From: Solobacterium sp.
GTDB lineage: Bacteria > Bacillota_I > Bacilli_A > Erysipelotrichales > Erysipelotrichaceae
Reading direction: 5' to 3'
Assembly (NCBI GenBank): GCA_017536885.1
Contig: JAFWCM010000224.1
Span: 42,013 to 106,012 of the forward strand
DNA: 64,000 nucleotides
Each line of letters opens with the position of its first letter. The stretch's first letter is position 1. Under the pieces are notes generated by a model. It was not told the DNA's origin. It ran no database searches and saw only the letters and a program-made list of their open reading frames with translations. Positions 1,354 through 51,985 of this stretch are shown here, piece after piece. The translations under genes were made by a program, and so were the position numbers.

Positions 1354-2064
1354 TCATTTCAGCCAGGAAGGCGACTGTTCCGAAAGCAGCGCCTTGAACA
1401 GCAGCAGGTCTTCCTTTGAAGTAATTTTGAAGTTCAGGTCACTGCCGCGGTTGAACCAGACCTGAAAGCCGCACTCGATCAGCAGGGTGCAGGTTGCGAC
1501 CGAGGCGACGATTCCCTTCTCTTTCGCAAGATCATGAAGCTCGCACATTTCCTTCAACGGCATCGCATGCGGTGTCTGGGTGCGGTAGAGAATTTCGCGG
1601 TCAATGCTTTCGACACTCTGGATCTTGTCCGGTGTCACCAGCATCGCCTCCTTGCAGTCGATCGCGGTAATCGCATTGCCATGTTTGCGGCAGGTTTCGA
1701 TGTTGGAGGTGATCACCTCTTCGGGAAGATACGGCCTTGCGCCGTCGTGCACCAGAACAAGATCGGTGTCCGCATGGGTTTTTCTCACTTCATACAGGAC
1801 GTTCTCTATCGACTCCTGACCGGTCTTACCGCCTTTGATAATCCCCTTGAGCTTGGTGATGCCGAACTGCTGGGCATAGAGATCCATGAATCCCTCCCAG
1901 CCTTCGAGGATCGCAACATAGATCTCATCGATCATCGGGTGGTTCTGAAAGCACTCCAGGGTATAGATAATAATCGGTTTGTCATATACATGAAGAAACT
2001 GCTTCGGTACAAGCTGATGTGTCCGGGTACCGGTGCCGGCAGCGGTGATAATTGCTATATTCAT
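1354..2064 (-). CDS. IspD/TarI-family cytidylyltransferase (CDP-alcohol forming)
   Basis: MNIAIITAAGTGTRT...VLVHDGARPY...RTQTPHAM are typical IspD/TarI motifs. The internal ATG at 2064 is preceded by a GGGAG RBS. The gene lies 12 nt upstream of the ThDP enzyme gene. Confidence 0.75.
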   Translation of the reverse strand: MNIAIITAAGTGTRTHQLVPKQFLHVYDKPIIIYTLECFQNHPMIDEIYVAILEGWEGFMDLYAQQFGITKLKGIIKGGKTGQESIENVLYEVRKTHADTDLVLVHDGARPYLPEEVITSNIETCRKHGNAITAIDCKEAMLVTPDKIQSVESIDREILYRTQTPHAMPLKEMCELHDLAKEKGIVASVATCTLLIECGFQVWFNRGSDLNFKITSKEDLLLFKALLSEQSPSWLK

Positions 2065-2183
2065 AAGGTCACTCCCTGTATTATTATACACATAAGAAGT
2101 TTTCCTTTGAGGAAGCTCGGGGAGAATGCATTCTGCCTCTTCGGTCCCGAAAGGGAAACCACGGAAACTGCGGGAGATTTTTT

Positions 2184-2741
2184 ATGGATAAAACGCTTTT
2201 GAGGACCCTGTACTGGGATATGAAAGTACGGGACGGATGTCAGGATGATATTGATTCCCTCTCCGAGGCAGAGAAGGAAGCCTATATCAGAAAAGAACTG
2301 CGGAAAATGCTTCACAACAAGGAAGAACGGCTTTTCCGGCTGACGTACTGGATGCGGATGCGGCAGTTCTATCCCCGCAGCAGCCCCAAATGGCTTGCGG
2401 CAACGGCGATGTACAAAAGGGAACTGCAGAAATACCCGATCCGCATCGACTGCAATCCCGGCGAAGGATTTCACATCGTTCATCCCAGCTTCATGTATCT
2501 CAATGCGGAGAAAATCGGTTCGTTTTTCACCGTATATCAGGGGGTCACCCTCGGGGTGGATAAAACCGGCGGAAAGCCCGTGATCGGTGATCATGTAACG
2601 GTGTATACCAACGCCGTGATCAGCGGTCCGGTCAAGATCGGAGACGGCTGCGTCATCGGTGCCAATGCCTTTGTCAACCGGGATCTCCCCCCCAACACCA
2701 TCGCGATTGCGGGAGACACCATCTTCAAAACCAGAAAATAG
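2184..2741 (+). CDS. Hexapeptide-repeat O-acetyltransferase, serine-acetyltransferase (CysE/EpsC)-like
   Basis: The C-terminal left-handed beta-helix repeats read VYQGVTLGVDKTGGKPVIGDHVTVYTNAVISGPVKIGDGCVIGANAFVNRDLP. Confidence 0.7.
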   Translation: MDKTLLRTLYWDMKVRDGCQDDIDSLSEAEKEAYIRKELRKMLHNKEERLFRLTYWMRMRQFYPRSSPKWLAATAMYKRELQKYPIRIDCNPGEGFHIVHPSFMYLNAEKIGSFFTVYQGVTLGVDKTGGKPVIGDHVTVYTNAVISGPVKIGDGCVIGANAFVNRDLPPNTIAIAGDTIFKTRK

Positions 2742-4117: not shown

Positions 4118-5785
<1,668 letters not shown>

Positions 5786-6206: not shown

Positions 6207-6360
6207 TCCCGGCGTCTTCCCTCTTCCATCCCCGGGCATGCGGGAATCAGTCTCTTCCTCTTTGCCGGCCGGTCACCGCTTCTTCGCCTTTTTTCTTCTT
6301 TTCGTTTTTCTGTGTAGGAAATCATGGACCTTCCCATGCTTTGTACTATACTTGTGTGGT

Positions 6361-8313
6361 ATGAAAAAACGACTTTCTCCCGCAAAAGGGTTCGCATTCC
6401 TCTATTTTTCCGCAGCTTTCTTTTTTCTTTTTATGACCGATGTCAACGCCTATATCGATCCGTCGGTCATGACCTATGCGATTCAGGCGATCGCCGGCAT
6501 TGCGATTGCCCTCGGTACGGTATTCGGCATTTACTGGCGGAAGATCCGATCGGTGCTGTTTCATGACAGTTTTGATCAGAAGATCCGTGAATCGGACAAT
6601 CTGGAGTTCCGCGATCCCGCCTCTTCGGAAATACGTGCCCTGCACTTCAGTGAACAGACAGCGCAGAAGGAAGAGAAAAAACCATTCCGGGAATTCCCTG
6701 CGGCGGTGATGCTTTCCGTCGCGATGGGATTCATGCTTTGTTTCTATACGCCGCTGGAAATCTATTTCACGAACATCTTCGAGTTTGAATATGACGTCTA
6801 TGCGATCTTCCGGTATATCCTTCTGCTGTTTCTGATCGTCACCTCCGTATTGATCTCCGGGTTCTTCCTGGTCCGGCTGATTTCGAAGAAGCTGTTCTTC
6901 GGATGCGTGGTTCTGGGGCTGATCGCATTTCTCGCCTTTTACATTCAGGGCAATTTCCTGATCGGGGATCTGCCGCCTTCCGACGGCACCGAGGTCGACT
7001 GGTCGATGTTCCGTGCCCAGGAGATGCAGTCGCTGATTCTCTGGATTGCAGTGACAGCTGCCGTGATCCTGTTTGCGGTGGTATTGAAGCGGAAGAAGTT
7101 TCTGAATTTCACGAAGTTCATCACCTCCGCAATCACCGCCGTGCTGGCCGTCACCCTGGTCATCGTCTGCGTAAGAAACAACGGCCTGCAGCGCAAGACC
7201 CAGTTATGCATCAGCCATGAAGGCCTTGCGGAAATGTCCTCCGACAAAAACTTCGTGATCTTTGTCGTGGATGCGGTCGACTCGAAGACCTTCGCAGATC
7301 TCATGAACAGTGAAGACCCTTATTTCGCCGATGTGTTCGAGGACTTCACCTACTATCCCGATACATTGGCCGTCTATCCTTTTACGGTGCTTGCGGTGCC
7401 CCACATCCTTACCGGCGAGCGGTATCTCTGCCAGGATGAATTCCGCTCCTACTATACCGGGGCGATGAAGCAGTCGCCGATTCTCAGACGGCTGAAAAAC
7501 GAGAACTATGTAAGAGCGATCTACGATGTACAGGATGTCGTATTCGAGGATCCCGAATTCTTCGAATACGAAAACATCTTTGAGCGGCCCTATGGCCTTG
7601 GCAGCGCGAAGACCTTCATGCTGGATGAGCTGCGGATGGCGTTCTTCCTCTATATGCCCTATCAGCTCAAGCGCTATGAGCCCTACGCATTGTTCAACCT
7701 GCAGAATGAAAAAGCGGCCGAGTATTATTACCAGTGGTATGATCCCTGGTTCTACGATTATTTCGATGACCATAAGGTCGAGGTAAAACCGGAAAAGCGG
7801 TTCCGCTACATTCACATTGAAGGCGCTCATCCTCCCTATCGCTACAACCGGGATCTTGAGGATGTCGAAGACACCGATGAAGCTTCCTATGAAGCCAATG
7901 TCGAGGCATGCGTCACGGTGCTGGAAAAATACCTGCAGTCTCTGAAGGATTCCGGCACCTATGACAACAGCGCCGTGATCATCCTCGCGGATCACGGATA
8001 TGCGGACAAGGTCCACAGCAGCGGAAGACAGAATCCTCTGCTTCTGATCAAAGGATTCAATGAAAAGCATGCGATGCTTACTTCCGATGCGGCGATCGGC
8101 TACGATGATCTGCAGGAGATCTATCAGAATCTGCTCGACGGAAAAAGCGGCGAAGCAGTCCTTCCGGAAAATACCGGGCCGGAGCGCTCCCGCAGCTACA
8201 TCCAGTTTGAATATGATGATCTGAATCATCTTACCGAACTTGAGCTCACCGGGGCCAAGGCGGATGACTTCGAAGCACTGAAGCCCACCGGAAAAACATA
8301 TTCCAGAGAATGA
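6361..8313 (+). CDS. LtaS/EptA-like sulfatase-fold membrane phosphotransferase, paralog 1
   Basis: N-terminus: MKKRLSPAKGFAFLYFSAAFFFLFMTDVNA-YIDPSVMTYAIQAIAGIAIALGT, followed by multiple TM segments. Extracytoplasmic domain motifs: NFVIFVVDAVDS, YPFTVLAVPHILTGE and IILADHGY, NPLLLIKGF. The start was chosen by alignment to the three paralogs. Confidence 0.8.
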   Translation: MKKRLSPAKGFAFLYFSAAFFFLFMTDVNAYIDPSVMTYAIQAIAGIAIALGTVFGIYWRKIRSVLFHDSFDQKIRESDNLEFRDPASSEIRALHFSEQTAQKEEKKPFREFPAAVMLSVAMGFMLCFYTPLEIYFTNIFEFEYDVYAIFRYILLLFLIVTSVLISGFFLVRLISKKLFFGCVVLGLIAFLAFYIQGNFLIGDLPPSDGTEVDWSMFRAQEMQSLILWIAVTAAVILFAVVLKRKKFLNFTKFITSAITAVLAVTLVIVCVRNNGLQRKTQLCISHEGLAEMSSDKNFVIFVVDAVDSKTFADLMNSEDPYFADVFEDFTYYPDTLAVYPFTVLAVPHILTGERYLCQDEFRSYYTGAMKQSPILRRLKNENYVRAIYDVQDVVFEDPEFFEYENIFERPYGLGSAKTFMLDELRMAFFLYMPYQLKRYEPYALFNLQNEKAAEYYYQWYDPWFYDYFDDHKVEVKPEKRFRYIHIEGAHPPYRYNRDLEDVEDTDEASYEANVEACVTVLEKYLQSLKDSGTYDNSAVIILADHGYADKVHSSGRQNPLLLIKGFNEKHAMLTSDAAIGYDDLQEIYQNLLDGKSGEAVLPENTGPERSRSYIQFEYDDLNHLTELELTGAKADDFEALKPTGKTYSRE

Positions 8314-8554: not shown

Positions 8555-9850
8555 TTACAGCTCGTCGATCAGGGTGATGATCTCTTTGATCGGAAGAAGA
8601 CGGTCATCCACTTCCTTGGCACGATGGTATTTCAGGATATCGCGGGCGGTTTCCTGCATCGCCGGGAAGGCGCTTCTCGTCAGCTGATTTGCGTAGATGA
8701 CAATGTTCACCCCGTGCTCTGAAAGCTCTTCTTCGGTAATCGTATTGAAGCTGCTCGGAACCACGACGATCGGGGTTTTCTGATCCGTTCTGCGGAACTC
8801 ATCACAGAACGCGAGGATTTCCGCCGGATCTTTCTTCCGGGAATGAATCATGATGCCGTCGGCACCCGCTTCCACATAGGCGCGGCATCTCTTCAGTGCG
8901 TCTTCCATCCCCTGCTCGAGGATCAGGGATTCACATCTGGCGATGATCATGAAATCATCCGTCAGCTGCGCCTCCTTGCCGGCTTTGATCTTGGCGGAGA
9001 ACTCTTCGATATCCGCCTGCGTCTGTTCCACCTCGGTGCCGAACAGGCTGTTTTTCTTAAGCCCCTTCTTGTCTTCGATGATGACGGCGGAGACTCCCAT
9101 TCTTTCGAGAGTTCTGACGTTGTATACGAAATGTTCCGCAAGACCTCCGGTATCGCCGTCGAGGATGATCGGCTTGGTGGTCACTTCCATGATGTCATCG
9201 ATCGTACGCAGCCGCGAGCTCATGTCCACCAGCTCGATATCCGGCTTGCCCTTGGCGGTGGAATCGCAGAGTGAGCTCACCCACATCGCATCAAACTGAT
9301 CCAGACGGCCGTCATGTTCGACAATCGTCTTCTCGACGATCAGACCGGTGAGGCCGCTGTGGGCCTCCATGACCTTGACGATCGGCGTCATTTCAATCAG
9401 CTGTCTCAGCCGCTTTCTGCGGTATTCGGGCATCGAAAGCTTTTCGATCAGCTGCCGGTCGATTTTCTTCACGGCCGGATTATAGGTATATCCCACTTCA
9501 ATCAGCTCGCCGCCGTACGTTTTCAGAAGGTTCAGCACATTCTCGCGGATCGCGGATTCGGGCCCTTCTCTCCAGTTGTCGCCATGGATGACATAGTCGG
9601 GCTTCAGCTGTTCGATCACATGGTCATACATGATGTCATCCTGTACGATGACCTCATCCACACCCTCGAGATTCTCATACATCCGGACTCTTTCCTCCAG
9701 CGGCACCGTCGGAAAGCGGTTGAACCGGATCGCCGCCTTGTCGCTTAAGGCGCCGACTACGACGCGGCCGTATTTCTCTGCCTCTTTGATGATGTTCTTA
9801 TGTCCCTCATGGATTACGTCCGTACAGAACACGGTATACACTGTCTTCAT
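8555..9850 (-). CDS. aepX: Cytidylyltransferase (HxGH type)-phosphoenolpyruvate mutase fusion, copy 1
   Basis: N-terminal domain: MKTVYTVFCTDVIHEGHKNII...HGDNWREG. Mutase domain: AMWVSSLCDS, ILDGDTGG, VIIEDKKGLKKNSLFG, IIARCES. The ATG at 9850 is preceded by a GAGGGGGA RBS. Confidence 0.9.
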   Translation of the reverse strand: MKTVYTVFCTDVIHEGHKNIIKEAEKYGRVVVGALSDKAAIRFNRFPTVPLEERVRMYENLEGVDEVIVQDDIMYDHVIEQLKPDYVIHGDNWREGPESAIRENVLNLLKTYGGELIEVGYTYNPAVKKIDRQLIEKLSMPEYRRKRLRQLIEMTPIVKVMEAHSGLTGLIVEKTIVEHDGRLDQFDAMWVSSLCDSTAKGKPDIELVDMSSRLRTIDDIMEVTTKPIILDGDTGGLAEHFVYNVRTLERMGVSAVIIEDKKGLKKNSLFGTEVEQTQADIEEFSAKIKAGKEAQLTDDFMIIARCESLILEQGMEDALKRCRAYVEAGADGIMIHSRKKDPAEILAFCDEFRRTDQKTPIVVVPSSFNTITEEELSEHGVNIVIYANQLTRSAFPAMQETARDILKYHRAKEVDDRLLPIKEIITLIDEL

Positions 9851-9864
9851 ATTCTCAGTCCCCC

Positions 9865-11001
9865 TCAGTTTTCTGCGTAGTATACAGGCACGGCGATATT
9901 GCATGCCTTCAGTGCGTCTTTGAATACCTCAAAGAACGCTTCGATATCCGCTTCGTCAATCGCTCCCAGCGAACAGAGACGGAAGGTGTTGGCGGAGCTC
10001 ACAAACCCGGGATAAATCGTATATCCGCGCTCATAACAATAGTCGTGAAGCCGGTCGAAATTCCAGTTGGGATCATCGGGATAAACCGCCGATGAGACCA
10101 GTCCCGCCCGGATTTCGGCGGGAAGCAGCTGGCGGAAGCCGAGCTCTTCAAGGCCTTTGTTTATGGCGTTATAGACCCTTGTATGCCTTGCCCATTTGCC
10201 TTCTTCCCCTTCCTGCCAGTATTCCTTGATCGCCTGAACCAGGGCATAGATCGTCTGGACCGGCGGGGTGAAATGCATTTCTCCGGTTCTCTCGAAGAAT
10301 TCATACTGCAGGTAGAGATTGCAGTAATAGGAGCGTTTGGGATAATCCCTGCTCGCCTCGATGATCGACCGTCTTCCGATGATGAAGGAGATGCCGGTAA
10401 ATGCCATCAGGCCCTTCTGGGCACTGGCCATCAGGAAGTCGATGTTTTCTTCTTCGATATGAATCGGCCGCATCGCATAGACGCTTGTGGTGTCGCAGAC
10501 AAAGACCGCACCGTATTGATGCGCCAGGGCGCCGAGCTCCTTTGCCGGATTCAGAAGGCCGGTGACGGTTTCCTGGTAGGTCGTGTAGACCATGGCGATA
10601 TCCGGATTGTTCTTCAGGGTTTCTTCGACTTTGGCAAGGTCGGGCTGTTCGGTGATCGGGAATTTGAGATCAATGCACGGCAAGCCGTAATACATCGCGA
10701 TTTCCGCGGCTCTTGCGGAATAGTTGCCGTTGTCTACGACCAGAATCTTCTTCCCTTCCGGAAGAAGAGAGCTGATGCATACGTCGATATTGATCGTTCC
10801 GCTTCCGCAGAACAGCACGCTGGTATAGGTGTCGGGATCGCCGTGGACGATCTTTACGAGATCTTCCCGCAGACCTTTGAACAGCGAGGAGAATTCCTTT
10901 TCCCGGGGACAGATGTCGGGAACCACCTGCGCATATTTGACGGTATCCGTCGTGGTGGAAGGTCCCGGGTTCAGCAGTATTTTTCGTTCGATCTTTTTCA
11001 T
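9865..11001 (-). CDS. aepZ: 2-aminoethylphosphonate:pyruvate aminotransferase (class V, PhnW/AepZ-like)
   Basis: MKKIERKILLNPGPSTTTDTV...; a PLP-lysine-type region MASAQKGLMAFTGISF; adjacent to the PEP mutase gene. Confidence 0.85.
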   Translation of the reverse strand: MKKIERKILLNPGPSTTTDTVKYAQVVPDICPREKEFSSLFKGLREDLVKIVHGDPDTYTSVLFCGSGTINIDVCISSLLPEGKKILVVDNGNYSARAAEIAMYYGLPCIDLKFPITEQPDLAKVEETLKNNPDIAMVYTTYQETVTGLLNPAKELGALAHQYGAVFVCDTTSVYAMRPIHIEEENIDFLMASAQKGLMAFTGISFIIGRRSIIEASRDYPKRSYYCNLYLQYEFFERTGEMHFTPPVQTIYALVQAIKEYWQEGEEGKWARHTRVYNAINKGLEELGFRQLLPAEIRAGLVSSAVYPDDPNWNFDRLHDYCYERGYTIYPGFVSSANTFRLCSLGAIDEADIEAFFEVFKDALKACNIAVPVYYAEN

Positions 11002-11026
11002 GTTCTTTTCCTCATTCAGATATCGT

Positions 11027-11965
11027 TCATCCGTAGATGCCGGGGTTGTAGGACTGATCAAAGGCGCACAGTTCCCGGAAGGTATCAATTTCGGTGATAT
11101 CCTCCTGGCGGCATTCCTGTATTTTCACATGGTAGTCGTTTCGGAAGACGACCAGCGGCACCTGTTCCCAGTAGAGCTCTTTTCCGCCGGGCATCCGATA
11201 TGCCTCTTCGATATGATCGGCCAGCTTTCTGCCGTCCTCTTCATTCCAGAAGGATATGCCGACCATCTGGTAATTCTCCTCGCCCTGCCCGCCGACTTTC
11301 TCCTCGGTGATCGTTCCGTCTTTTACGGTAAAGCACCAGTCATCCGACCATGCCTTTCGGATCGCCAGAAAGTCGGAGGTATAGTGGTACCTGCGAAGAA
11401 TCTTCGGATTGGAGATCAGCAGATCGCTTTCCAGCACATAGGCGTTGGAGATCAATGTCCTGACACACAGCATTGAATAGATATTGTTGGTTTCGTTGTA
11501 TCTCTGATTCTCGATGAACCGGATCATCGGATATTTATACCGAAGCAGATCAAACTGCTCGGCAAGATATCCCCGGATGATATAGATCTCCTCAATCCCG
11601 ATCGCAAGGCAGGCATCGATCAGCCGGTCGATGATCCGCTCCCCGTTCACCCGGACCAGAGGCTTGGGGGTATTCAGCGTCACCGGCACCAGCCGCGATC
11701 CGAATCCCGCCGCAAGAAAGATGGCCCGCTTCACGCGGTAGGGTTCCAGCGCCGCAAGCCCCGAGGAAGTGATTCTTCCCTCCTGTACAAACCCCTTTGA
11801 AACCAGGGTTTTCAGTACGCGGTTGACGGTCGCCAGGGAATAGACGGTGCCTTCCTGAATCCGCCTCTGACTCATCGGCTCACTGCAGTCCGCAAGCAGC
11901 GCCAGAATTCCGAACTCTTTTTCGGAAAGCATCTCTTTCCGGTTTTCTTCGTTTCGTTCTGCCAT
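11027..11965 (-). CDS. Winged-helix (MarR-like) domain fused to a LicC/PntC-type nucleotidyltransferase
   Basis: The N-terminal ~75 aa read EFGILALLADCSEPMSQRRIQEGTVYSLATVNRVLKTLVSKGFV (wHTH-like). They are followed by AIFLAAGFGSRLVPVTLNTPKPLVRVNGERIIDRLI...NETNNIYS (LicC-family NTP-transferase). Confidence 0.8.
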   Translation of the reverse strand: MAERNEENRKEMLSEKEFGILALLADCSEPMSQRRIQEGTVYSLATVNRVLKTLVSKGFVQEGRITSSGLAALEPYRVKRAIFLAAGFGSRLVPVTLNTPKPLVRVNGERIIDRLIDACLAIGIEEIYIIRGYLAEQFDLLRYKYPMIRFIENQRYNETNNIYSMLCVRTLISNAYVLESDLLISNPKILRRYHYTSDFLAIRKAWSDDWCFTVKDGTITEEKVGGQGEENYQMVGISFWNEEDGRKLADHIEEAYRMPGGKELYWEQVPLVVFRNDYHVKIQECRQEDITEIDTFRELCAFDQSYNPGIYG

Positions 11966-12007: not shown

Positions 12008-12065
12008 ATAAATAAAAAACAGAATGTTTCACAATTCCGGTCTTATATGACCCGTGAAACATTCT
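12008..12065 (-). terminator. Intrinsic terminator or attenuator between LtaS-like paralog 2 and the LicC-like gene
   Basis: A perfect 12-bp inverted repeat AGAATGTTTCAC-N21-GTGAAACATTCT (12021-12032 / 12054-12065). On the minus strand it is followed by GTTTTTTATTTAT. Confidence 0.5.
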
Positions 12066-12090
12066 ATTCGTTTCTGAACCTGCCTGTCAA
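12061..12090 (-). promoter_or_regulatory. Candidate SigA promoter overlapping the terminator stem
   Basis: The minus strand reads TTGACA (12085-12090)-18 nt-TAGAAT (12061-12066). The -10 box lies in the upstream arm of the inverted repeat. Confidence 0.3.
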
Positions 12091-12091
12091 C

Positions 12092-14065
12092 TCAGTCGGG
12101 TACGAATTCATTCCCCGTCTCGTGCATGGCATCGAAGTCGCCGGCATAGCCTTCTGTTTCAAATTCCCAAATCAGCTCCGGGGTATTGAAGTTGAAGGCG
12201 AGAAAGCGCCTCTTGCGCGCCTGTCCCTCGGTAAGATCAAAGAGCTGATCGGAACTGTTACCGGCGAGCAGTTTCTGATACATCTCCTGGAAATCGATCT
12301 GGGAGATCGGAATCTCCGATGTTTCCATCGCGTGCTTTTCGCCGAAGCCCTTGATCAGAAGCAGCGGGTTGGAACGGCCTGTCAGGGCGTTGATCTCATC
12401 CTCGTCCCGGTATCCGTGATCGGCGAGGACGATGATTGCGGAATTGTCAAAGATGCCGGCTTCCTTCAGTTTGGAAAGATAATTGTGCACGATCGTGATG
12501 CTTGCCTGCACATTCTGGGAATAGGAGCCGTCCTGTGTGGAAATCTCGTTGACATCCTTGTCAAAGTGGAACGGCACATGTGCCCCTTCGAGATGGATGA
12601 ACCGGAAACACGGCTGATCCACAAAGGAGAACTCCGTCTGTTTCTGGGTGTTGTTGAACCAGATGTTCTTTCCGATAAACGGTTCCTGCTGGCCGATCGC
12701 GCGGTGCTGGATGTTTTCAAACATATCCTCATGGGAGAACAGCGGCTTGAGCGGATACGGCATGTACTGGAACCAGGTCATGTAAAAACTCTGCCGGGCG
12801 TATTCGCCGATCGAATCGAGAACATAGTGGTCATCCATGACATTGTCGAAGCGGTAGATGCCCCTGTCCGCATAGGTCAGCTGGTCCTCATACATGCCGA
12901 GCAGATACCCCTCTTCCTCCAGGGATGCCAGCAGTTTCGAGCGGTTCATCGCCCGGGTTTCAAAGACTTCGAAGTCCTCCTGGTTTTCAAACCATTCGCC
13001 AGTCAGGATAAAGGGAACTGCGTGGCTGGTGTAGGTGTAGGAACCGACGGTATTGGGAAAGTAGGTGAAATCCTCGAAATACTCCCTGTATTCGGGATCC
13101 TCGCTTTCCATAAGATCGCGGAAGATGCCCGAATCCGTCGCATCGATCATGAAGAAGATCACGTTTTTGTTTTCCGACATCACAAAGAGATTCTTCGTGG
13201 TGACGGAAGCGGAGGCCCTGGGAGTGAAGCCGTTTTTCTGATAGGCGACATTGAACAGGGTTGCGGCCATGATCAGCGTCAGAAAGACGGCGATATTATT
13301 GGCGGCCAGAAAAAAGACTCGCCGCTTCATCCGGACCGCCATCAGGACCACCAGCACTCCGACGACAAGAATCAGAACATAGGACTGCAGTTTCTGAACA
13401 CCGTACTTCGACCAGTCAAAACTGGTGCCGTCCATCGGCGGAAGTCCTCCGGCCATGAAATTGCCGTGAATGAAGCTGATGATGAGAAACGCCAGCCCGA
13501 GCGCCGTGAAGAAGGTGTAGACCGCCGGCCCAGCCTTATGCGCGATGAAATACACCAGGCTTCCGACCGCCATGCCGAAGGCAAACATGATGCCCACCGC
13601 CGGCAGGATCGAATAGATATCGTACAGAAACTCCCGCATATTGCCGAGATACAGCATCAGCGGTGAATACAGCATCCACAGAAAGCTGACCGCCAGCGTA
13701 ATCAGTATTCCGCTGCGCAGGCTGAAGGTCTTTTTCTTTTTTTCCTGACTTTTCCGGATGGAAGAAATCTCCTCGCCGGAAAGAAAGGACAGGGCACGCA
13801 GGGTGTCTCCGCTTTCGGGATCGTGAAAGACGAGATCATCGCCCGCAATATCGCGGTTTGCCTCTTCCTCTTTTCCCAGAATCACCTTCCGGATGCGGCG
13901 GCCGTAGATTCCGACTGCCGTTCCCAGCGCAATGGCGATGCCGGCGATTGCCTGGATCGCATAGGTGAGAACCGAAGGATCCACATAGGCCCGCACATCG
14001 GTCATGAACAGAAAGAAACAGCAGACGGTGAAGTACAGATAACGGAACAGCTTATCCGGCTTCAC
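12092..14065 (-). CDS. LtaS/EptA-like sulfatase-fold membrane phosphotransferase, paralog 2
   Basis: (V)KPDKLFRYLYFTVCCFFLFMTDVRA-YVDPSVLTYAIQAIAGIAIALGT; NVIFFMIDATDS; YTYTSHAVPFILTGE; IVLADHGY. The GTG start at 14065 has a GGGAGAG RBS and matches the paralog N-termini. It overlaps the upstream stop by 14 nt. Confidence 0.8.
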   Translation of the reverse strand: MKPDKLFRYLYFTVCCFFLFMTDVRAYVDPSVLTYAIQAIAGIAIALGTAVGIYGRRIRKVILGKEEEANRDIAGDDLVFHDPESGDTLRALSFLSGEEISSIRKSQEKKKKTFSLRSGILITLAVSFLWMLYSPLMLYLGNMREFLYDIYSILPAVGIMFAFGMAVGSLVYFIAHKAGPAVYTFFTALGLAFLIISFIHGNFMAGGLPPMDGTSFDWSKYGVQKLQSYVLILVVGVLVVLMAVRMKRRVFFLAANNIAVFLTLIMAATLFNVAYQKNGFTPRASASVTTKNLFVMSENKNVIFFMIDATDSGIFRDLMESEDPEYREYFEDFTYFPNTVGSYTYTSHAVPFILTGEWFENQEDFEVFETRAMNRSKLLASLEEEGYLLGMYEDQLTYADRGIYRFDNVMDDHYVLDSIGEYARQSFYMTWFQYMPYPLKPLFSHEDMFENIQHRAIGQQEPFIGKNIWFNNTQKQTEFSFVDQPCFRFIHLEGAHVPFHFDKDVNEISTQDGSYSQNVQASITIVHNYLSKLKEAGIFDNSAIIVLADHGYRDEDEINALTGRSNPLLLIKGFGEKHAMETSEIPISQIDFQEMYQKLLAGNSSDQLFDLTEGQARKRRFLAFNFNTPELIWEFETEGYAGDFDAMHETGNEFVPD

Positions 14066-16130
14066 TGTGACTCTCCCATCTCTTTTCCACCTGCGAGAAT
14101 ACCTGATCGATGATATAGCGTGCCCCCACTTCACCGCTGCTTCCGAGGTTGTACACATACTCATGCACAAATTCGTCGATCTTCGCACGGTATTCTTCCG
14201 AATGATCCAGGAGATACTGCACCTGCCCCGGCACTTCTTCCATATGATCGGGCCTGACGACGGCGCCGATCACCTCCCGCATCCAGATATTGATGGGTAC
14301 GGTGTCAATCTTCTGATATTCGGGGTTCATGACCTTCATCGGCGTGTCGATGAAGAGAACCGGTTTGCATGTCGTATATGCATACTCATAGGCGATGCCC
14401 GACCAGTCGGTGATCATGAGGTCGGCTTCAAACACCGTGGAATTGCTGGAGAAGTCGGTCTGAATCTCAATATTGGAATCGTCTTTGAACCGCTCCTTAA
14501 GCTGGTTCATCCGCTCCGGCATATGGCGCACATGCTGGGGGTGAGGACGCACGACAACCTTGTAGGAATGGCCTTTGAGCTGGTCGAGCAGTTCATCGAG
14601 GCAGGAGTCGACGATGTTGTCTTTCTGCCAGGACGGGGCGATCAGAATCGTCGTCTGATGGTCTTTCGGAAGCGTCATCCCGGCATAATCCGCACGCATG
14701 TCATCGAGCAGCGGATAACCGGTGTCGATGATTTCCTTTCGCGGCAGGTCATAGGCGATTTCCACTTTCTCCACCTCTTCCCGGTGATGCTTGCCGGTGA
14801 CGAGGACCGCATCGAAATGATCCATGGAGCCCTTGCGCATCGTCATGTTCAGCGAGTCCATGCAGTGAGGAATATAGATGTATTTAATGTCCTTGCGGAC
14901 ATAGCTGCGCTTGATCTGATAGTTTTCAAGATCCGGCATCGTCATGACCACGACATCCGCGTCCATCTTCATCATCAGAGTGATGAGGCTAGTCATATCG
15001 ATGTAGTACGGTTTGATCTGATCATTTTCCTTTGCCATCTCAAAAATCTGATCGTTCGGATCACTGGTGATATAGTGCAGCGGAATATTCGTGTACTTCA
15101 GAATAAAGTCGATCGTTCCGCGGTAATACTTGAAGAAGCCGTTGGATTCGGAGTAGAAGACAAGATGCTTGTTTCCGATCGAGAAAAAGCGTTTGTAGTC
15201 GGCTCTCGCCCGTTTGACGAGCGGGTCATTCCACTTTCTCTTCTCCTTTCCCTTCTCGAGTTCCGCAAGCTCTTTCCGGGATGCCTCGAGATCTTCGTGA
15301 TCGACATATTTCCTGGGATCGATCGCCATGTTCAGAAGCACCTGCTGGACGATCGCAAGCAGATTTGACGCAATCCAGTACAGCACAACTCCGGCTGCGA
15401 CAAAAATGCCGAGATAGACGGAAATGCCTACGGAGAATGCCATCATTCCGTATTTGTTCCAGTTGGACTGCTCGGACTGAAGGACATTGATCCGGTTCTG
15501 CGCCCAGGCCAGCAGCCAGGATGAAAGTCCGGCAAGAAGCGGAACAATCCAGGCGATGCCTCCGGTCACGGATGCGATCCAACCGAGGTTCATGCCGAGG
15601 AACGTCATGCCGAGGCTGTTTACGGCCCGGACGGATTCTTCGGAAGCTGCGGCGATATAGGCATCGGTATGTTCATTGCTCTGAATATCCTGAATCACCG
15701 CCAGTTCCAGCGAACCCGATTCGGGGTCCAGTCCGTCGACATAGTCAAGAGAGGCCGACTTCAGGGCGGCAATATCGTCTTTGGGAAGCTTCAGAATATA
15801 TTCCATGGGGTGATAGATCACTTCCACCACACCCATCAGAAGAACGATCTGGATGATCAGCGGGACAATCGAAGCCAGAGGATTGTATTTTTCCCGTTTG
15901 AAAAGCTTCTGCTGTTCTTCGGCAATCGCATCGTTGTCTCCGTAATGACGAACCTTGATCCGGTTGATCTCCGGCTGAATCCGCACCATTTTGATGGAAT
16001 TCTTCTGGACCCACACGGATACCGGAAGAAGGACAATCTTGCTGAAAACGGTAAAAAGGATGATTGCCAGTCCATAGTTTTTTGTAATGTCATAGCACCA
16101 TTTCATCACGGTGCCGAATATCTGTCCCAT
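14052..16130 (-). CDS. YidC/Oxa1-family insertase domain fused to a TagF/TagB-type (CDP-glycerol glycerophosphotransferase-like) domain
   Basis: The N-terminal ~285 aa read KNYGLAIILFTVFSKIVLLPVSVWVQKNSIKMVRIQPEINRIK..EEQQKLFKREKYNPLASIVPLIIQIVLL...VVLYWIASNLLAIVQQVLLN. The C-terminal ~360 aa carry ILIAPSWQKDN, VVRPHPQH and LMITDWSGIAYEYAYTTCKPVLFIDTP. Confidence 0.8.
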   Translation of the reverse strand: MGQIFGTVMKWCYDITKNYGLAIILFTVFSKIVLLPVSVWVQKNSIKMVRIQPEINRIKVRHYGDNDAIAEEQQKLFKREKYNPLASIVPLIIQIVLLMGVVEVIYHPMEYILKLPKDDIAALKSASLDYVDGLDPESGSLELAVIQDIQSNEHTDAYIAAASEESVRAVNSLGMTFLGMNLGWIASVTGGIAWIVPLLAGLSSWLLAWAQNRINVLQSEQSNWNKYGMMAFSVGISVYLGIFVAAGVVLYWIASNLLAIVQQVLLNMAIDPRKYVDHEDLEASRKELAELEKGKEKRKWNDPLVKRARADYKRFFSIGNKHLVFYSESNGFFKYYRGTIDFILKYTNIPLHYITSDPNDQIFEMAKENDQIKPYYIDMTSLITLMMKMDADVVVMTMPDLENYQIKRSYVRKDIKYIYIPHCMDSLNMTMRKGSMDHFDAVLVTGKHHREEVEKVEIAYDLPRKEIIDTGYPLLDDMRADYAGMTLPKDHQTTILIAPSWQKDNIVDSCLDELLDQLKGHSYKVVVRPHPQHVRHMPERMNQLKERFKDDSNIEIQTDFSSNSTVFEADLMITDWSGIAYEYAYTTCKPVLFIDTPMKVMNPEYQKIDTVPINIWMREVIGAVVRPDHMEEVPGQVQYLLDHSEEYRAKIDEFVHEYVYNLGSSGEVGARYIIDQVFSQVEKRWESHSEAG

Positions 16131-16225: not shown

Positions 16226-17485
16226 CTATCGTTCCGAAAGCGTGCTGATCCTCTCTTTCAGCTCTCTGACCGCTTCTTCGTTGGTGAAGGAATAATCGAT
16301 GCGTGAGGTTTTTCCGTGCAGCACAATGTCCTCAAGTCCTCTCAGAATGTCATGCCTGTCATAGCGGCAGACCACCGAATCCGTCTTTTTCATCAGCCGG
16401 TAAGCGGGGCTTCTCGAAGTGGTGACGGCAAGCACATTCTTTTTGAGCAGCGAATACTCCAGAACCTTGCTCGGAAGATAGGGCTGAATTTCATCCTCCG
16501 GCATAATCGTATCGAACAGAAGCACCGCATCCGCCTCGGACATGCGCTGATACCCTTCCTCGTAGGAGAACTTGTCATGAATCACGAAATAGTCCGTAAG
16601 TCCGAGTTTGCGGATCAGCTTCAGATCGGAGCGCCGGAATTCCCCGTACTGCTCGATCCGCAGTTTCCGATTGGGATACATCTTGACAAACAGGAACAGG
16701 GCATAGATAAACTCCTCGATGATGCGGAGCCCGTAGATGCGCCCGAAGTGCGCCAGGGTAAAGACTTCCCCATGTCCCGCATTGTCCTTTTCCGCCGGGC
16801 TGTTCCACTCGGGGATATAGGAAAGCGGCACGATCACGCATTTGTCACGGATCGTTTTCTCATCAACGGCATGAAAGTATTTCATGTACTGCTCAATCAT
16901 GAAATCCCGCTGTTCTTCGCAGATAAACAGCAGAAGATCGGCGTTTTCAAAGGCATCCGCCTCATCTCTGTCGCGAACGTAAAAATGGCAGTAAAGGTAG
17001 AAACACTCCCGTTCGACCGGATAGTACGAGCGGATCGTTTTCGTATCGTATTTGTAGGGGCTGTGATTGATCGGATCGGAAAAGCTCGCAATCCAGATCA
17101 GCTCCGGATGCCGTTTCTTCAGCTCCATGCCCGCACGGATCGATGCGGTGGGAAACGTCGAGGTATAGAGAAACTGCTGATCCGAATACATGTTCACCGC
17201 CGCCTGCGCATATTGTTTTGTGACGGAAAGCGACTTTAAGAGATTCACATTGCGGATCGAAAAGGTCGCATCCCTGTGGGTGCACACCGTTTCGACATGA
17301 AATTTCCGGTACTCGGGGTCGAGGTTCAGCTTTTCCACAAGCCCGGGGTCATCTTTCTCCCCGTCCATGGCGCATACATCATACCTCATCGGCAACAGCC
17401 GCAGCTGCTTGTACACCAGCTGGGTCGTCACATCATTATAGGGAAGAAACGTGCCCGGTACCGCCAGACAGGTATTTTTTCTCAT
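16226..17485 (-). CDS. GT-B fold glycosyltransferase (GT4-like)
   Basis: 419 aa. The C-terminal region FDTIMPEDEIQPYLPSKVLEYSLLKKNVLAV resembles the GT4 EX7E region. The N-terminal half is divergent. Confidence 0.55.
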   Translation of the reverse strand: MRKNTCLAVPGTFLPYNDVTTQLVYKQLRLLPMRYDVCAMDGEKDDPGLVEKLNLDPEYRKFHVETVCTHRDATFSIRNVNLLKSLSVTKQYAQAAVNMYSDQQFLYTSTFPTASIRAGMELKKRHPELIWIASFSDPINHSPYKYDTKTIRSYYPVERECFYLYCHFYVRDRDEADAFENADLLLFICEEQRDFMIEQYMKYFHAVDEKTIRDKCVIVPLSYIPEWNSPAEKDNAGHGEVFTLAHFGRIYGLRIIEEFIYALFLFVKMYPNRKLRIEQYGEFRRSDLKLIRKLGLTDYFVIHDKFSYEEGYQRMSEADAVLLFDTIMPEDEIQPYLPSKVLEYSLLKKNVLAVTTSRSPAYRLMKKTDSVVCRYDRHDILRGLEDIVLHGKTSRIDYSFTNEEAVRELKERISTLSER

Positions 17486-25360: not shown

Positions 25361-26458
25361 TCACAGCTGATACAGCGCCAGAATCTGCGGCTCGATGACT
25401 TCCCGGGAATACGGTTCGATATCCTTCTTTTCCTGCGCGCTGAACGCCTCGCGAAGAGCGGCCGAGCGGCGCAGTTCGGTCAGCTTCCGCAGGAAGACGG
25501 CGGTATCGTCGACGGGATAGAGAAAGCCGTTTACGCCGTCATGAATGAGATCGCGGTTGCCGCGGATCCCGGTTGCGATGACGGGCAGGCCGGCTGCCAT
25601 CGCTTCCATGACCGCAACCGGAAGGCCTTCCTGATAGGAGGGAAAAACGAACACATCCATGCCGTACATCAGTTTTCTTGCGTCCTTCCGGAAGCCGAGA
25701 AGATGAACCTGGCCATCCAGGCCCTCACGCTTCAGCTCATCCGCCAGCGCTTCGCTGAGCTTTCCGCTGCCGGCGATCACATAATGAAGCTTCGGGTCAG
25801 AGAGGAAGCTGTTCTTCAGACTGTTGATGATGAAGCGGTGATTCTTGCGGGGAATCAGCTCGCCGATCGAATACAGCACAAAGGCATCCTCGCCGATTCC
25901 CAGTTCCTTTCGGAGCACGGAGCGCTCTTCCCGGTCGCTTTGAATCGCTCTTACATCCACGCCGACGCCGGGAATATAGACAGGTCCCCCGCCCTTTTTA
26001 TAATGAAAGGTTTTCGCGGCTTCATAGTCTTCGGGATTGATCGTCATCAGCACATCGGTCCAGTGGGCAGCCAGCCGTTCCATGTTCTTATAGGCAAGCT
26101 GATTGATCATTGGACTGCCGTTCCAGAAATGGAAGCCGTGAGCGGTGTAGATCACCTTGAGATCAAAACCGCTAGCCGCTTTTCTTCCGAAGAATCCGGC
26201 AACGGGAGAATGACAGGAGATGATGTCATACCGATTTTCCCGGAGGATTTCCTCCAGCTGCTTTTCCGCCTTGAAATTATCCGGATGGAGGGGATTCCGG
26301 TTAAAGGGCACCGTGTATTTGCGGTGAATGGAATCGATGGTGTAAGTACCGTTGGTCACTGCGTCAACCGTATGCCCCATAGCGGCAAGCGCATCGATCG
26401 TGCGCCAGTGAAATGTCTGAATCTGAAGATCCATGGTTGTACAGAACAGTATTTTCAT
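25361..26458 (-). CDS. GT4 glycosyltransferase
   Basis: FVFPSYQEGLPVAVMEAMAAGLPVIATGIRGNRDLIHDGVNGFLY (EX7E region). Confidence 0.85.
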   Translation of the reverse strand: MKILFCTTMDLQIQTFHWRTIDALAAMGHTVDAVTNGTYTIDSIHRKYTVPFNRNPLHPDNFKAEKQLEEILRENRYDIISCHSPVAGFFGRKAASGFDLKVIYTAHGFHFWNGSPMINQLAYKNMERLAAHWTDVLMTINPEDYEAAKTFHYKKGGGPVYIPGVGVDVRAIQSDREERSVLRKELGIGEDAFVLYSIGELIPRKNHRFIINSLKNSFLSDPKLHYVIAGSGKLSEALADELKREGLDGQVHLLGFRKDARKLMYGMDVFVFPSYQEGLPVAVMEAMAAGLPVIATGIRGNRDLIHDGVNGFLYPVDDTAVFLRKLTELRRSAALREAFSAQEKKDIEPYSREVIEPQILALYQL

Positions 26459-38117: not shown

Positions 38118-38139
38118 ATTCTCTCCTTTTACCTTTGGA

Positions 38140-40062: not shown

Positions 40063-40207
40063 GATCCGGATTCCTTTTTCCCTGCGGGTTCTGTTCCACA
40101 TCTCTTAACGTACAACATTATATCCCAATCATTTGAAAATCCCACGCCGAGTTCTCTTTTTTGATTCGTACACTGCCTTTGGGATTCTCGCTCTCTGTAG
40201 GGGCATA

Positions 40208-41841: not shown

Positions 41842-41895
41842 GCCTGTTCTCTCGTAAAAGCAAACAGGCTTTCTGCCGGGTGAATGTGTATGATA

Positions 41896-51982: not shown

Positions 51983-51985
51983 GGT

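Follow-up and report, generated by a model that had tools for sequence, protein, structure and literature searches.

The YidC–TagF fusion gene

What is a membrane insertase core doing in the same polypeptide as a TagF-type phosphotransferase? This question is raised by a gene at positions 14052–16130 of the window (the whole stretch of 64,000 nucleotides that was analysed), which lies on the minus strand, a point absent from the initial annotation. Re-reading gave the same coordinates and length as that annotation: a single open reading frame with an ATG start, 692 uninterrupted codons and a TAA stop at 14054–14052, whose translation contains all the motifs quoted earlier (GLAIILFTVFSKIVLLPV, IQPEINRIK, EEQQKLFKREKYNP, VVLYWIASNLLAIVQQVLLN, ILIAPSWQKDN, VVRPHPQH and LMITDWSGIAYEYAYTTCKPVLFIDTP). 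Both Pfam domains scored above their curated cut-offs, and the AlphaFold model of the 692-aa protein had a pLDDT of 88.2, with a pTM of only 0.61–0.64 (a range that includes a triple-fusion model described below), too low to place the active site relative to the groove. The YidC–TagF fusion is not an assembly artefact, because the identical protein was found on 10 contigs (NCBI, ENA and Logan) and some 360 loci of species-representative genomes encode relatives. Both domains were kept in 118 of the 120 best clusters; the exceptions were P0032, a 502-aa fragment, and P0033, which matched PF02096 only. The database label of the protein is simply "YidC". As the initial annotation had supposed, the searchable literature yielded neither a characterised protein of this architecture nor a publication on such a system. 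The protein is real, widespread in gut Firmicutes and unstudied.

Two complete domains

The YidC/Oxa1 core occupies aa 1–270 (15321–16130, minus strand). Pfam 60KD_IMP matched aa 19–267 over the full model length (E 2.5e-34, 119 bits, cut-off 35), NCBIfam yidC_oxa1_cterm scored 115 bits against a cut-off of 84, and E. coli YidC (6AL2) was among the best PDB matches of the AlphaFold model in Foldseek, so that the earlier reading of a complete YidC core was borne out by all three approaches. The helix pattern and the predicted structure show five TM helices and the cytoplasmic C1 hairpin. The outward-facing TM2–TM3 loop carries a helical insertion of about 65 residues (aa 108–175) that is poorly conserved. 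In a profile alignment with the E. coli and B. halodurans YidC structures, groove residue K31 aligns to E. coli R366. Of 45 aligned sequences, 42 have K and 3 have R at this position, and groove positions T27, Q94, W252 and N256 are fixed. The identity of the YidC core (50–56%) matches the conservation of the enzyme domain. Glycerophospholipid scrambling has been reported for E. coli YidC in vitro and for B. subtilis MisCB in silico (PMC11047089).

A two-helix linker of about 50 aa (15174–15320, minus strand) leads to the TagF-like phosphotransferase domain, which has a GT-B fold and covers aa ~320–692 (14055–15173, minus strand), or aa ~320–660 in a narrower delimitation. Pfam Glyphos_transf matched aa 434–659 (E 1.9e-15, 57 bits, cut-off 22). 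The top PDB matches in Foldseek were TagF (3L7L, E 1e-9) and TarL (8VA1, 4e-7), with the capsule polymerase 8A0M also among the closest solved structures. The TagF-type assignment thus held by HMM, AlphaFold and Foldseek, and its placement on the cytoplasmic side was upheld. H422, APS498–500, R528-H530-P531, D575-W576-S577, K599 and R618 are invariant, and the donor-half motifs align with GVPRTD, LFAPTF, KMHP and LISDYSS of TarL.

The LtaS-like partner and a small membrane protein

Downstream of the fusion lies a gene for an LtaS-like membrane phosphotransferase of the alkaline-phosphatase superfamily (12092–14065, minus strand, 657 aa, Sulfatase Pfam match). Its start is GTG at 14065, preceded by the Shine-Dalgarno sequence GGGAGAG, and the NCBI call of 657 aa agrees. 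The reading frames do overlap, as had been noted, by 14 nt over the stop codon of the fusion and not by the 137 nt that the longest open reading frame implied; the arrangement indicates that the LtaS-like gene is translationally coupled to the fusion. Three paralogues with the same N-terminal module were found in the window: paralogue 2 at 6238–8313 (plus strand, likely true start 6361; Sulfatase Pfam, the leader-AYIDPSV-TM motif and phmmer), paralogue 3 at 38140–40101 (minus strand; Sulfatase Pfam and motif VQAAYIDPSVMTYAIQAIAGI) and paralogue 4 at 43558–45516 (plus strand; phmmer match and motif, with Sulfatase at 24.8 bits, just under the 25-bit cut-off). Across the family, D308, T346, H491, H496, D549, H550, K440, K572 and R619 are invariant, and the set of metal ligands and threonine nucleophile is kept. 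The window has one YidC–TagF gene for four LtaS-like paralogues, against one to three elsewhere, a ratio compatible with a single donor shared among transferases that each serve a different acceptor.

The module at the N-terminus of the LtaS-like protein (13871–14065, minus strand) consists of a hydrophobic leader, a cleavage-type site VRA/Y, the TM helix YVDPSVLTYAIQAIAGIAIALG and a basic tail. At other loci it is an open reading frame of its own, 80–140 aa long and directly downstream of the fusion, with the general pattern leader-AxA/YIDPSVMTYAIQ-TM, i.e., leader-AxA/YIDPSV-TM. It matched no Pfam or NCBIfam family. This small membrane protein is a fourth conserved component, previously undescribed; it was overlooked in the initial annotation, as was an S26 signal peptidase gene that is frequent nearby (31/80 fusion loci; 24/41 long loci). 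Wherever a fusion locus had enough flank, the LtaS-like gene was there (41/41 and 29/29), and the small-TM motif was seen at 40/41 of the long loci and at 29/29.

In natural three- and four-part fusions, every component is found in one polypeptide. Their order is YidC–TagF–(leader-AxA/YIDPSV-TM)–LtaS in P0121, P0139, P0159 and P0169, and LtaS–YidC–TagF in P0122, P0125, P0126 and others. Either order is compatible with a YidC whose N-terminus lies outside and C-terminus inside. One triple fusion was modelled confidently as a whole (pLDDT 91.6), and the best matches of its LtaS-like part were full-length PbgA/YejM, MCR-1 and LtaS, which are membrane lipid-handling proteins of the alkaline-phosphatase superfamily with the same fold. 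There are also direct YidC–LtaS-like fusions that lack the TagF part, and two of them have lost the basic groove residue. The proposed functional link between the fusion and the LtaS-like gene is much strengthened by the complete co-occurrence and by these single polypeptides. The four-part partnership is obligatory, and like the fusion and its conservation it was observed directly.

Donor genes in the window and across loci

A terminator-like hairpin with a T-run (12011–12065, minus strand) was read between the LtaS-like gene and the genes for 2-aminoethylphosphonate (AEP). Its 12-bp arms are AGAATGTTTCAC (12065–12054) and GTGAAACATTCT (12032–12021), and a promoter-like site at 12090–12061 (11/12 match) overlaps it. 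Beyond it, on the minus strand, are a winged-HTH and LicC-like nucleotidyltransferase without a kinase domain (11027–11965; NTP_transferase and HTH Pfam), a candidate AEP cytidylyltransferase of the PntC type; an AEP aminotransferase (9865–11088; TIGR03301 PhnW-AepZ, 435 bits, cut-off 361); and a cytidylyltransferase–PEP mutase fusion (8555–9904; CTP_transf_like and PEP_mutase, TIGR02320, 420 bits, cut-off 320). The claim that the AEP genes lie one hairpin downstream stands for the hairpin and fails for phosphonopyruvate decarboxylase, which is not adjacent. That gene (33608–34732, minus strand; TIGR03297, 462 bits, cut-off 312.5; TPP enzyme domains) completes the AEP pathway of the window, and a second cytidylyltransferase–PEP mutase fusion was found by Pfam at 35173–36474 (minus strand). 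The window also encodes, 31 kb from the fusion, a true LicD, which could use CMP-AEP by the classical cytoplasmic route. No CMP-AEP-using enzyme has been identified so far (PMC6697681).

The donor modules were seen to vary between loci. LicC–LicA, which implies CDP-choline, was the commonest (36/80 fusion loci). Homologues of the winged-HTH/LicC-like gene occurred at 37/80, mostly with an added choline-kinase domain, and a third module, a TagD-like cytidylyltransferase with a class-V aminotransferase, at 8–10/80. No nucleotidyltransferase was found within 10 kb in 12/41 long loci, which counts, as does the LicD of the window, against the mechanism proposed below. Because LicD-type motifs were present at only 5/80 fusion loci and CDP-alcohol phosphatidyltransferase motifs were detected at none, the TagF-like domain is the obvious consumer of the donor. 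The initial annotation had tied the fusion to phosphonate or head-group genes: the link to head-group activation genes holds, and the link to phosphonate belongs to the locus in the window, not to the fusion generally, as PEP mutase was rare (3/80). For the wider TagF-like clade the phosphonate link is strong. At stand-alone TagF-like loci, PEP mutase was adjacent at 11/23 and nucleotidyltransferases at 17/23. The LtaS-like partner was present at 100% of fusion loci with enough flank versus at most 6/23 stand-alone loci. A nearby YidC was found at 0/23, although the same leader-bearing small protein occurs there. Some stand-alone systems have both LtaS-like and small-TM partners without a nearby YidC, which argues that the fused YidC is not strictly required.

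Proposed mechanism and alternatives

We believe, with a probability of about 45%, that the fusion is the hub of a modular machine decorating surface glycopolymers with small phospho- or phosphono-amino-alcohol head groups. A relay of loading inside, passage through the YidC groove and LtaS-like transfer outside is the best-supported reading, still unproven. Judging from gene content, neighbouring enzymes would supply the head group in CDP- or CMP-activated form, probably as CMP-AEP in the window and CDP-choline in most relatives. The cytoplasmic TagF-like domain would load it onto the hydroxyl of a membrane-embedded carrier lipid, the simplest candidates for which are diacylglycerol and a glycolipid, and the conserved hydrophilic YidC groove may let the polar head of this lipid cross the bilayer in a scramblase-type manner. 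LtaS, GacH and EptA draw on phospholipid head groups; in the same manner, one to four outside LtaS-like enzymes, docked via the small leader-YIDPSV-TM module, could use their metal site and catalytic threonine to strip off the head group and pass it to different acceptors. For this last step we rely on homology, conserved catalytic residues and the one-to-many gene ratio. If true, this would be a new route by which phosphocholine or aminoethylphosphonate reaches the cell surface.

The small protein is laid out like M13 procoat: its leader is followed by a very short, acidic stretch that is translocated, then by a TM helix and a basic tail. It thus looks like a client of YidC and leader peptidase and, with S26 nearby, points to protein insertion over lipid passage. 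The YidC core, which retains its full canonical form with C1 hairpin and basic groove residue, would then be a dedicated insertase for this protein and/or the multi-pass LtaS-like enzyme, with the co-encoded S26 as leader peptidase and the TagF-like domain merely tethered. We consider this improbable, since the LtaS–YidC–TagF and YidC–LtaS fusions keep YidC without the small module, the former makes its supposed client before the insertase and at 1:1, an uncommon arrangement for a catalytic assembly factor, the small protein also occurs in stand-alone systems without a nearby YidC, and two YidC–LtaS fusions lack the basic groove residue. It is very unlikely that a new chain resembling teichoic acid is polymerised, or primed, by the TagF-like domain on a membrane anchor and then exported and attached en bloc by the YidC-like core together with the LtaS-like enzyme, which would make this an alternative lipoteichoic-acid-type pathway instead of a decoration with single head groups. 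The nearest solved structures (TagF, TarL and 8A0M) are polymerases, as is LtaS proper, and some loci encode the TagD-like cytidylyltransferase of the glycerol-3-phosphate type; but the commonest implied donors, CDP-choline and CMP-AEP, have no second hydroxyl and so are not polymerisable, and the YidC groove is known to pass short polar segments, not long polyanions.

The relay also has to be weighed against a LicD-like cytoplasmic route, in which the TagF-like domain modifies an undecaprenyl-linked glycan repeat or teichoic-acid precursor inside, the polymer is exported by a Wzx or ABC transporter, the YidC core is a mere scaffold that keeps the enzyme in a membrane complex with the LtaS-like protein, and the latter performs another step, such as GacH-style transfer of glycerol-phosphate from phosphatidylglycerol or polymer ligation. 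To our knowledge, all characterised TagF, TagB and TarL enzymes act on lipid-linked polymers at the cytoplasmic face, and the fold matches theirs. Many stand-alone relatives sit beside PEP mutase, the LtaS-like gene being absent nearby at 17/23 or more, and fusion loci are often in glycan clusters with Wzx/ABC-2 exporters and glycosyltransferases. We nevertheless regard this route as rather unlikely, because it leaves unexplained the fixed groove residues and the enzyme-level conservation of the YidC core, the 100% tracking of the LtaS-like partner by the YidC fusion, the repeated welding of all parts into one polypeptide, and the presence of one fusion per up to four LtaS-like paralogues.

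Sequence and Integrity of the Fusion Gene

The YidC-TagF fusion gene lies on the minus strand and runs from an ATG at 16130 to a TAA at 14054-14052, encoding 692 aa. The initial annotation had described an uninterrupted 692-codon ORF at 14052-16130 without giving its strand, and this was confirmed, with all of the peptide motifs it had listed found in the translation. The exact protein is present on 10 independent contigs under the database name "membrane protein insertase YidC [Solobacterium sp.]", and both domains, at ~700 aa, were kept in 118 of the 120 best protein clusters, at identities down to 62%; the exceptions were a 502-aa fragment (cluster representative P0032) and a protein matching PF02096 only (P0033). 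Since the exact protein occurs on 10 contigs and the two-domain form in hundreds of full-length relatives, a sequencing or assembly artefact or a frameshift can be ruled out, and the concern that two separate genes had been read as one is settled: there is no split.

Profile searches and structure prediction, both suggested at the outset, supported the two-domain reading. The 60KD_IMP and Glyphos_transf models each scored above their cut-offs, and the AlphaFold model (pLDDT 88.2, pTM 0.61), made from a family alignment of 45 members that are 36-92% identical, together with Foldseek supported a YidC core and a TagF-like fold. Both its sequence and its fold place the protein in the YidC and Glyphos_transf families. 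We classed it as a widespread architecture that has not been characterised and that is under-annotated, since the label "YidC" hides its enzyme part. Queries combining YidC with glycerophosphotransferase, TagF, LtaS or Pfam names, and queries for such phosphocholine systems, returned no description in the searchable literature, in line with the first impression that no protein of this architecture had been characterised. A possible orthologue is the 'tagF' gene of Erysipelothrix rhusiopathiae (ERH_1440), which appears, in the available part of the literature on it, only as a CDP-glycerol glycerophosphotransferase in the serovar region.

Conservation of the YidC Core

PF02096 (60KD_IMP) matched aa 19-267 at 119 bits (cut-off 35) over model positions 1-162 of 163, and the NCBIfam YidC core model TIGR03592 scored 115 bits (cut-off 84). 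In the AlphaFold model, the first 270 residues form a five-helix YidC core (helices at 19-33, 35-61 and 66-79 for the hairpin, 84-106, 191-214, 223-243, and 246-269), with the cytoplasmic hairpin between TM1 and TM2, and Foldseek matched this core to E. coli YidC (6AL2, E 1.6e-5). Compared with the YidC structures of E. coli and B. halodurans, the family profile placed K31 on the groove arginine R366; the basic residue of the hydrophilic groove is R366 in E. coli and R72 in B. halodurans. Across 45 aligned sequences, position 31 was K in 42 and R in 3, and T27, Q94, W252, and N256 were fixed. The groove is thus conserved, and the mean pairwise identity of the YidC core (50-56%) is close to that of the enzyme domain (55-57%). 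A role as a mere membrane anchor is disfavoured, because the core is conserved like the catalytic domain and its groove residues are fixed. Membrane protein insertase activity is a trait of the family.

Like YidC, Oxa1, and Alb3, the fusion has the full five-helix core, the C1 hairpin, the basic groove residue, and the W/N pair of TM5. Unlike YidC, in which the groove residue is Arg, it has Lys there, it carries a poorly conserved helical insertion of ~65 aa (aa 108-175) in the outward-facing TM2-TM3 loop, it is without a lipoprotein signal, and a catalytic domain of ~420 aa is attached to its cytoplasmic C-terminus. Its gene also differs in setting, as it is located in variable glycan loci with an LtaS-like gene adjoining.

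Catalytic Features of the TagF-like Domain

PF04464 (Glyphos_transf) matched aa 434-659 at 57 bits (cut-off 22), covering only model positions 130-350 of 367, and no match was returned when the PDB was searched with the single sequence of the TagF-like half. In the AlphaFold model, a two-lobed GT-B fold occupies residues ~320-660 after a two-helix linker. Its best Foldseek match was TagF 3L7L (E 1.1e-9, target-normalised TM-score 0.55, 440 aligned columns), followed by TarL 8VA1 (E 4e-7) and a capsule polymerase, and the TagF/TarL match was seen again with the model of a triple fusion. A LicD domain was not matched in the fusion by Pfam.

The nucleotide-binding half aligns with TarL by sequence through GYPxxD, APSW, RPHP, and TDWS, and H530 of RPHP aligns with KMHP of TarL. 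H530 is invariant in the family alignment, as are R528, D575, S577, K599, and R618. The catalytic and pyrophosphate-binding histidine pair of this enzyme type is H444 and H584 in TagF, with H300 in TarL. H422, also invariant, lies in the acceptor half about where the TagF catalytic base would be and is a candidate counterpart of H444/H300.

The domain therefore resembles TagF, TagB, and TarL in its two-lobed GT-B-like fold and in the GYP..D, APSW, RPHP, and TDWS motifs of the nucleotide-binding half, and it is predicted to face the cytoplasm and act at the membrane as they do. It differs from TagF in its fusion to a YidC core, in an identity of ~15%, and in an N-terminal (acceptor) half that is not alignable by sequence. 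Unlike the TagF/TarL polymerases, it is likely to catalyze a single transfer, and the neighboring donor genes imply CDP-choline, CMP-2-aminoethylphosphonate (CMP-AEP), or an amino-alcohol donor instead of CDP-glycerol or CDP-ribitol.

LtaS-like Partner and Natural Fusions

The adjoining gene at 12092-14065 on the minus strand encodes 657 aa in the NCBI gene call, in agreement with a GTG start at 14065 preceded by the Shine-Dalgarno sequence GGGAGAG. The overlapping reading frames noted earlier for this pair amount to 14 nt at the fusion stop, and the two genes are translationally coupled. The partner matched the Sulfatase Pfam family at 36.9 bits (cut-off 25), scored 19.7 bits against the LtaS equivalog NF053595 (cut-off 970), and reached E values of only 0.04-0.06 against LtaS structures by phmmer. 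By sequence, it is LtaS-like and not LtaS. It has an N-terminal TM bundle and an extracytoplasmic alkaline-phosphatase (AP) superfamily domain in which the metal ligands and a nucleophilic Thr are present; its ADHG lines up with GDH in the LtaS metal site. D308, T346, D549, and H550 were invariant across 92 LtaS-like sequences, and the family also keeps H491, H496, K440, K572, and R619 of an alkaline-phosphatase-type site. Catalytic residues appear intact in both enzymes, the TagF-like and the LtaS-like.

This layout of TM helices followed by an outward AP-superfamily domain, with the metal-ligand and threonine set, is shared with LtaS, GacH, EptA, MCR-1, PptA, and PbgA. In contrast to that group, the partner shows very weak sequence similarity, contains or stands beside a leader-YIDPSV-TM module, is genetically joined to YidC-TagF, and has phosphocholine or AEP as its implied head groups. 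We know of no lipid donor of phosphocholine or AEP in these bacteria.

Searching exhaustively with the TagF-like half gave 2,282 cluster representatives, and among the best of them were ~60 YidC-TagF proteins, many proteins of 1,150-1,550 aa, and stand-alone homologues of ~380 aa. One stand-alone relative (P0239, 708 aa) carries a fused formyltransferase N-terminal domain. According to Pfam, the long proteins are either YidC-TagF-Sulfatase or Sulfatase-YidC-TagF. In the former, a leader-AxA-Y(I/V)DPSV-TM module sits right where the TagF-like part gives way to the LtaS-like part; the latter type is without this module. Both orders are compatible with an N-out/C-in YidC core. A representative of the reverse order (P0126, 1,185 aa) was modeled by AlphaFold with a pLDDT of 91.6, and the best full-length fold matches of the LtaS-like part in the triple-fusion model were PbgA (6XLP/6V8Q), MCR-1 (9NWW), and LtaS (4UOR). 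In two further proteins, P0368 (900 aa) and P0369 (1013 aa), YidC is fused directly to an LtaS-like part and no TagF part is present; both have F or S in place of the basic groove residue. These suggest that the partnership of YidC with the LtaS-like enzyme exists independently of the transferase.

A Small Membrane Protein as the Fourth Component

Directly downstream of the fusion, most loci contain a small ORF of 80-140 aa, which matches only the first ~100 residues of the window's LtaS-like protein. Its consensus is a hydrophobic leader, an AxA-type site, and YIDPSVMTYAIQAIAGvvIAVGA..GIYwRKAKKK...LGIDENRNKEVESDDI. Strong conservation begins at the cleavage site and covers YIDPSVMTYAIQAIAG, the TM helix, the basic stretch, and the acidic tail LGIDENRNKEVESDDI; environmental variants read AYLDPGTGS.... 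No Pfam or NCBIfam family matched it, and it is a fourth component that forms a previously undescribed family. It occurs as a separate ORF (for example, L053:12046-12360 in the locus of a relative) or joined to LtaS-like enzymes, as in the window, where such modules form the N-terminus of the LtaS-like proteins and lie at 13871-14065, ~6361-6560, ~39900-40062, and ~43558-43760. The idea, taken from locus L082, that the small protein has no leader when YidC is absent was dropped, as most environmental stand-alone loci bear the leader.

The coat proteins M13 procoat and Pf3 coat are classic substrates of YidC and leader peptidase. The small protein shares their layout, in which the leader is followed by a very short acidic stretch that is translocated, a single TM helix, and a tail of basic residues in the cytoplasm, and an S26 peptidase gene is often beside it. 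Unlike M13 procoat, it is cellular, is often fused to an LtaS-like enzyme, and belongs to no described family.

Distribution and Donor Modules

A scan with one genome per species found relatives at 361 loci in Erysipelotrichaceae (Solobacterium), Lachnospiraceae (Lachnospira eligens, Waltera, Acetatifactor, and Roseburia), Ruminococcaceae/Oscillospiraceae, and uncultured Bacilli. Neighborhoods were counted at 80 fetched loci, with a long subset of at least 18 kb (n = 41), and recurrent neighbors were clustered and their representatives scanned against Pfam. Both halves of the fusion were in one ORF in all 80 loci, and an LtaS-like gene adjoined on the same strand in 76. In the long subset, the LtaS-like gene, the small-TM motif, an S26 signal peptidase, and at least one nucleotidyltransferase were found in 41, 40, 24, and 29 loci, respectively, and 12 had no donor-forming gene within 10 kb. 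The usual order is S26 (where present), LtaS-like (1-3 copies), YidC-TagF, small protein, and donor module. The conserved unit is a four-part partnership, single-chain versions included, and its donor modules vary.

Among the 80 loci, the recurrent neighbors were a LicC-LicA type fusion of nucleotidyltransferase and choline kinase (36), S26 peptidase (31), GT2 glycosyltransferases (24), a class-V aminotransferase (10) paired with a TagD-like cytidylyltransferase-oxidoreductase (8), and ABC-2 exporters. The LicC-LicA genes at 36/80 loci and the AEP genes of the window argue for donors other than CDP-glycerol or CDP-ribitol. A CDP-alcohol phosphatidyltransferase motif was not found in these neighborhoods. 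The upstream chemistry is like that of the Lic (LicA/LicC/LicD) and Pnt (PntC) systems, with choline kinase and LicC encoded beside the fusion, or with PEP mutase, decarboxylase, aminotransferase, and cytidylyltransferase as the alternative, Pnt-like set. Unlike Lic, most fusion loci are without LicD within 10 kb (a LicD-type motif was present in 5/80) and have the TagF-like domain and an outward enzyme instead.

The third donor module, seen in 8-10/80 loci, consists of a protein in which a TagD-like cytidylyltransferase is joined to a GFO/IDH/MocA oxidoreductase (L035:13438-14781) and an adjoining class-V aminotransferase related to AEP transaminase (for example, L061:12354-13427). It may make a CDP-amino-alcohol, perhaps an aminated glycerol derivative.

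The initial annotation had linked the fusion to both LtaS-like and phosphonate genes. The former link stood at 41/41 long loci, but PEP mutase was near only 3/80 and 0/29 fusion loci, and phosphonate linkage was rejected as the defining trait of the fusion; it holds for the wider TagF-like clade. In stand-alone TagF-like loci sampled from metagenomes (n = 23), PEP mutase directly adjoined the TagF-like gene in 11, a nucleotidyltransferase was present in 17, a leader-AY(L/I)DPG(T/S)GS-TM small protein in ~9, an LtaS-like gene in at most 6, and a YidC-like ORF in none. L082 has the order LtaS-like, small protein, TagF-like, and LicC-like. From these counts and L082, the link to CMP/CDP head groups, phosphonates included, belongs to the TagF-like clade, and the YidC fusion goes with an obligatory LtaS-like partner.

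Proposed Mechanism and Alternatives

We propose that the components form a relay. The TagF-like domain would load an activated head group onto a membrane lipid in the cytoplasm, the fused YidC groove would let the polar lipid head cross the bilayer, and LtaS-like enzymes, docked by the small module, would hand the head group to surface polymers. We consider this the most economical model and put its probability at about 0.45. It would explain why YidC tracks the LtaS-like gene and why the groove is conserved, as well as the repeated fusion of the parts and the use of one loader for several outside enzymes. Scrambling of glycerophospholipids is documented for E. coli YidC in vitro and, in simulations, for B. 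subtilis MisCB (PMC11047089). That a YidC-type groove, joined to its loading enzyme, was recruited to translocate a small molecule instead of a protein, namely a lipid-linked phosphocholine or AEP head group, which then passes via the small subunit to the LtaS-like enzymes, is a tentative proposal. LtaS, GacH, EptA/MCR-1, and PptA draw their phospho-head groups from phospholipids at the outer face of the membrane, and PbgA/YejM is a lipid-binding member of this membrane AP-superfamily group.

If the relay is right, its logic is that of GtrA/GtrB/GtrC, CsbB/GtcA/YfhO, and ArnC/ArnEF/ArnT, in which a lipid carrier is loaded in the cytoplasm and flipped by small components, and outside transferases decorate polymers; a single loader for several outside transferases is typical. 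Unlike these systems, the relay has no homologous components (the Pfam families of GtrA, GtrB, and GT-C were not found in the conserved core), it would carry a phospho- or phosphono-head group instead of a sugar, and flipping would be the task of a YidC-type groove.

A cytoplasmic reaction of the LicD kind, with YidC as a scaffold, would agree with known TagF biology but gives no reason why the groove is conserved or the coupling so strict; we consider it unlikely. The design of the small protein and the S26 genes would fit a dedicated insertase serving this procoat-like subunit with its own leader peptidase, but some fusions retain YidC and have no small module, and in stand-alone systems the small protein occurs where YidC is absent, which makes this reading improbable. 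Least credible is a polymerase pathway, which fits poorly with choline and AEP donors. Under these other readings, a dedicated insertase, a leader peptidase, and a procoat-like subunit within an envelope-decoration machine would also be new.

Phosphocholine and AEP on bacterial surfaces shape host recognition through C-reactive protein, natural antibodies, and choline-binding proteins. To our knowledge, the route by which they are attached in most gut Firmicutes is not known. No transferase using CMP-AEP has been identified so far (PMC6697681), and the TagF-like clade is a candidate for one. If the relay is true, the TagF-like domain would be the missing CMP-AEP or CDP-choline transferase of these bacteria, within a new route, common among gut bacteria, for the extracytoplasmic zwitterionic decoration of cell-wall polymers. 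It would also give insertase-mediated lipid scrambling its first physiological role and define a new flippase class. The carriers include the abundant human gut genera Lachnospira, Waltera, Roseburia, and Acetatifactor, and rumen Solobacterium.

Other Genes of the Window

A terminator-like hairpin with a T-run (12065-12021) follows the coupled pair; the terminator consensus scan did not pick up this AT-rich hairpin. The AEP genes had been placed one hairpin downstream of the pair, and the hairpin, an AEP aminotransferase (TIGR03301, 435 bits), and a cytidylyltransferase-PEP mutase fusion (8555-9904, minus strand) are indeed there, together with a LicC-like nucleotidyltransferase without a kinase domain, but the phosphonopyruvate decarboxylase (TIGR03297, 462 bits) lies at 33608-34732. 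Because the decarboxylase and the other AEP genes were all found, the AEP/CMP-AEP pathway of the window is complete. A second cytidylyltransferase-PEP mutase fusion (35173-36474, minus strand) is beside the decarboxylase, and the two paralogous fusions and the LicC-like gene give three candidate cytidylyltransferases for one phosphonate. A sigma-70-type promoter match (TTGACA-18-TAGAAT, 11/12) at 12061-12090 on the minus strand overlaps the hairpin and suggests that the AEP genes are transcribed as a unit of their own.

The window has one YidC-TagF gene and four LtaS-like paralogues, each with a small module; no S26 gene was found in it. Two Wzx/Wzy-type glycan clusters are also present. A true LicD-family transferase (47464-48297, minus strand, 157 bits) lies 31 kb from the fusion, in a cluster (46649-56513) with GT2, two GT4s, Bac_transf, GT11 of the fucosyltransferase type, and a Wzx-like flippase. 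Since this LicD is genuine, CMP-AEP could be used in the classical cytoplasmic way here too, and the enzyme may act in the cytoplasm on CMP-AEP or CDP-choline.

Four ORFs of 530-563 aa, at 26455-28086 (-), 36510-38201 (-), 40243-41841 (+), and 41884-43494 (+), are interspersed with the LtaS-like paralogues and phosphonate genes. They had no Pfam or NCBIfam match, the first two look polytopic in translation, and all may be outside-acting enzymes that modify polymers. Immediately upstream of the fusion is a 419-aa ORF (16226-17485, minus strand) without a family match, which is outside the conserved core because a homologue was found in only 1/80 related loci. An ORF at 4163-5776 (-) was read from its sequence as a GroEL-type chaperonin gene, with an IspD/TarI-like cytidylyltransferase (1354-2091, minus strand) and a hexapeptide acetyltransferase (2184-2741, plus strand) nearby at the edge of the glycan region.
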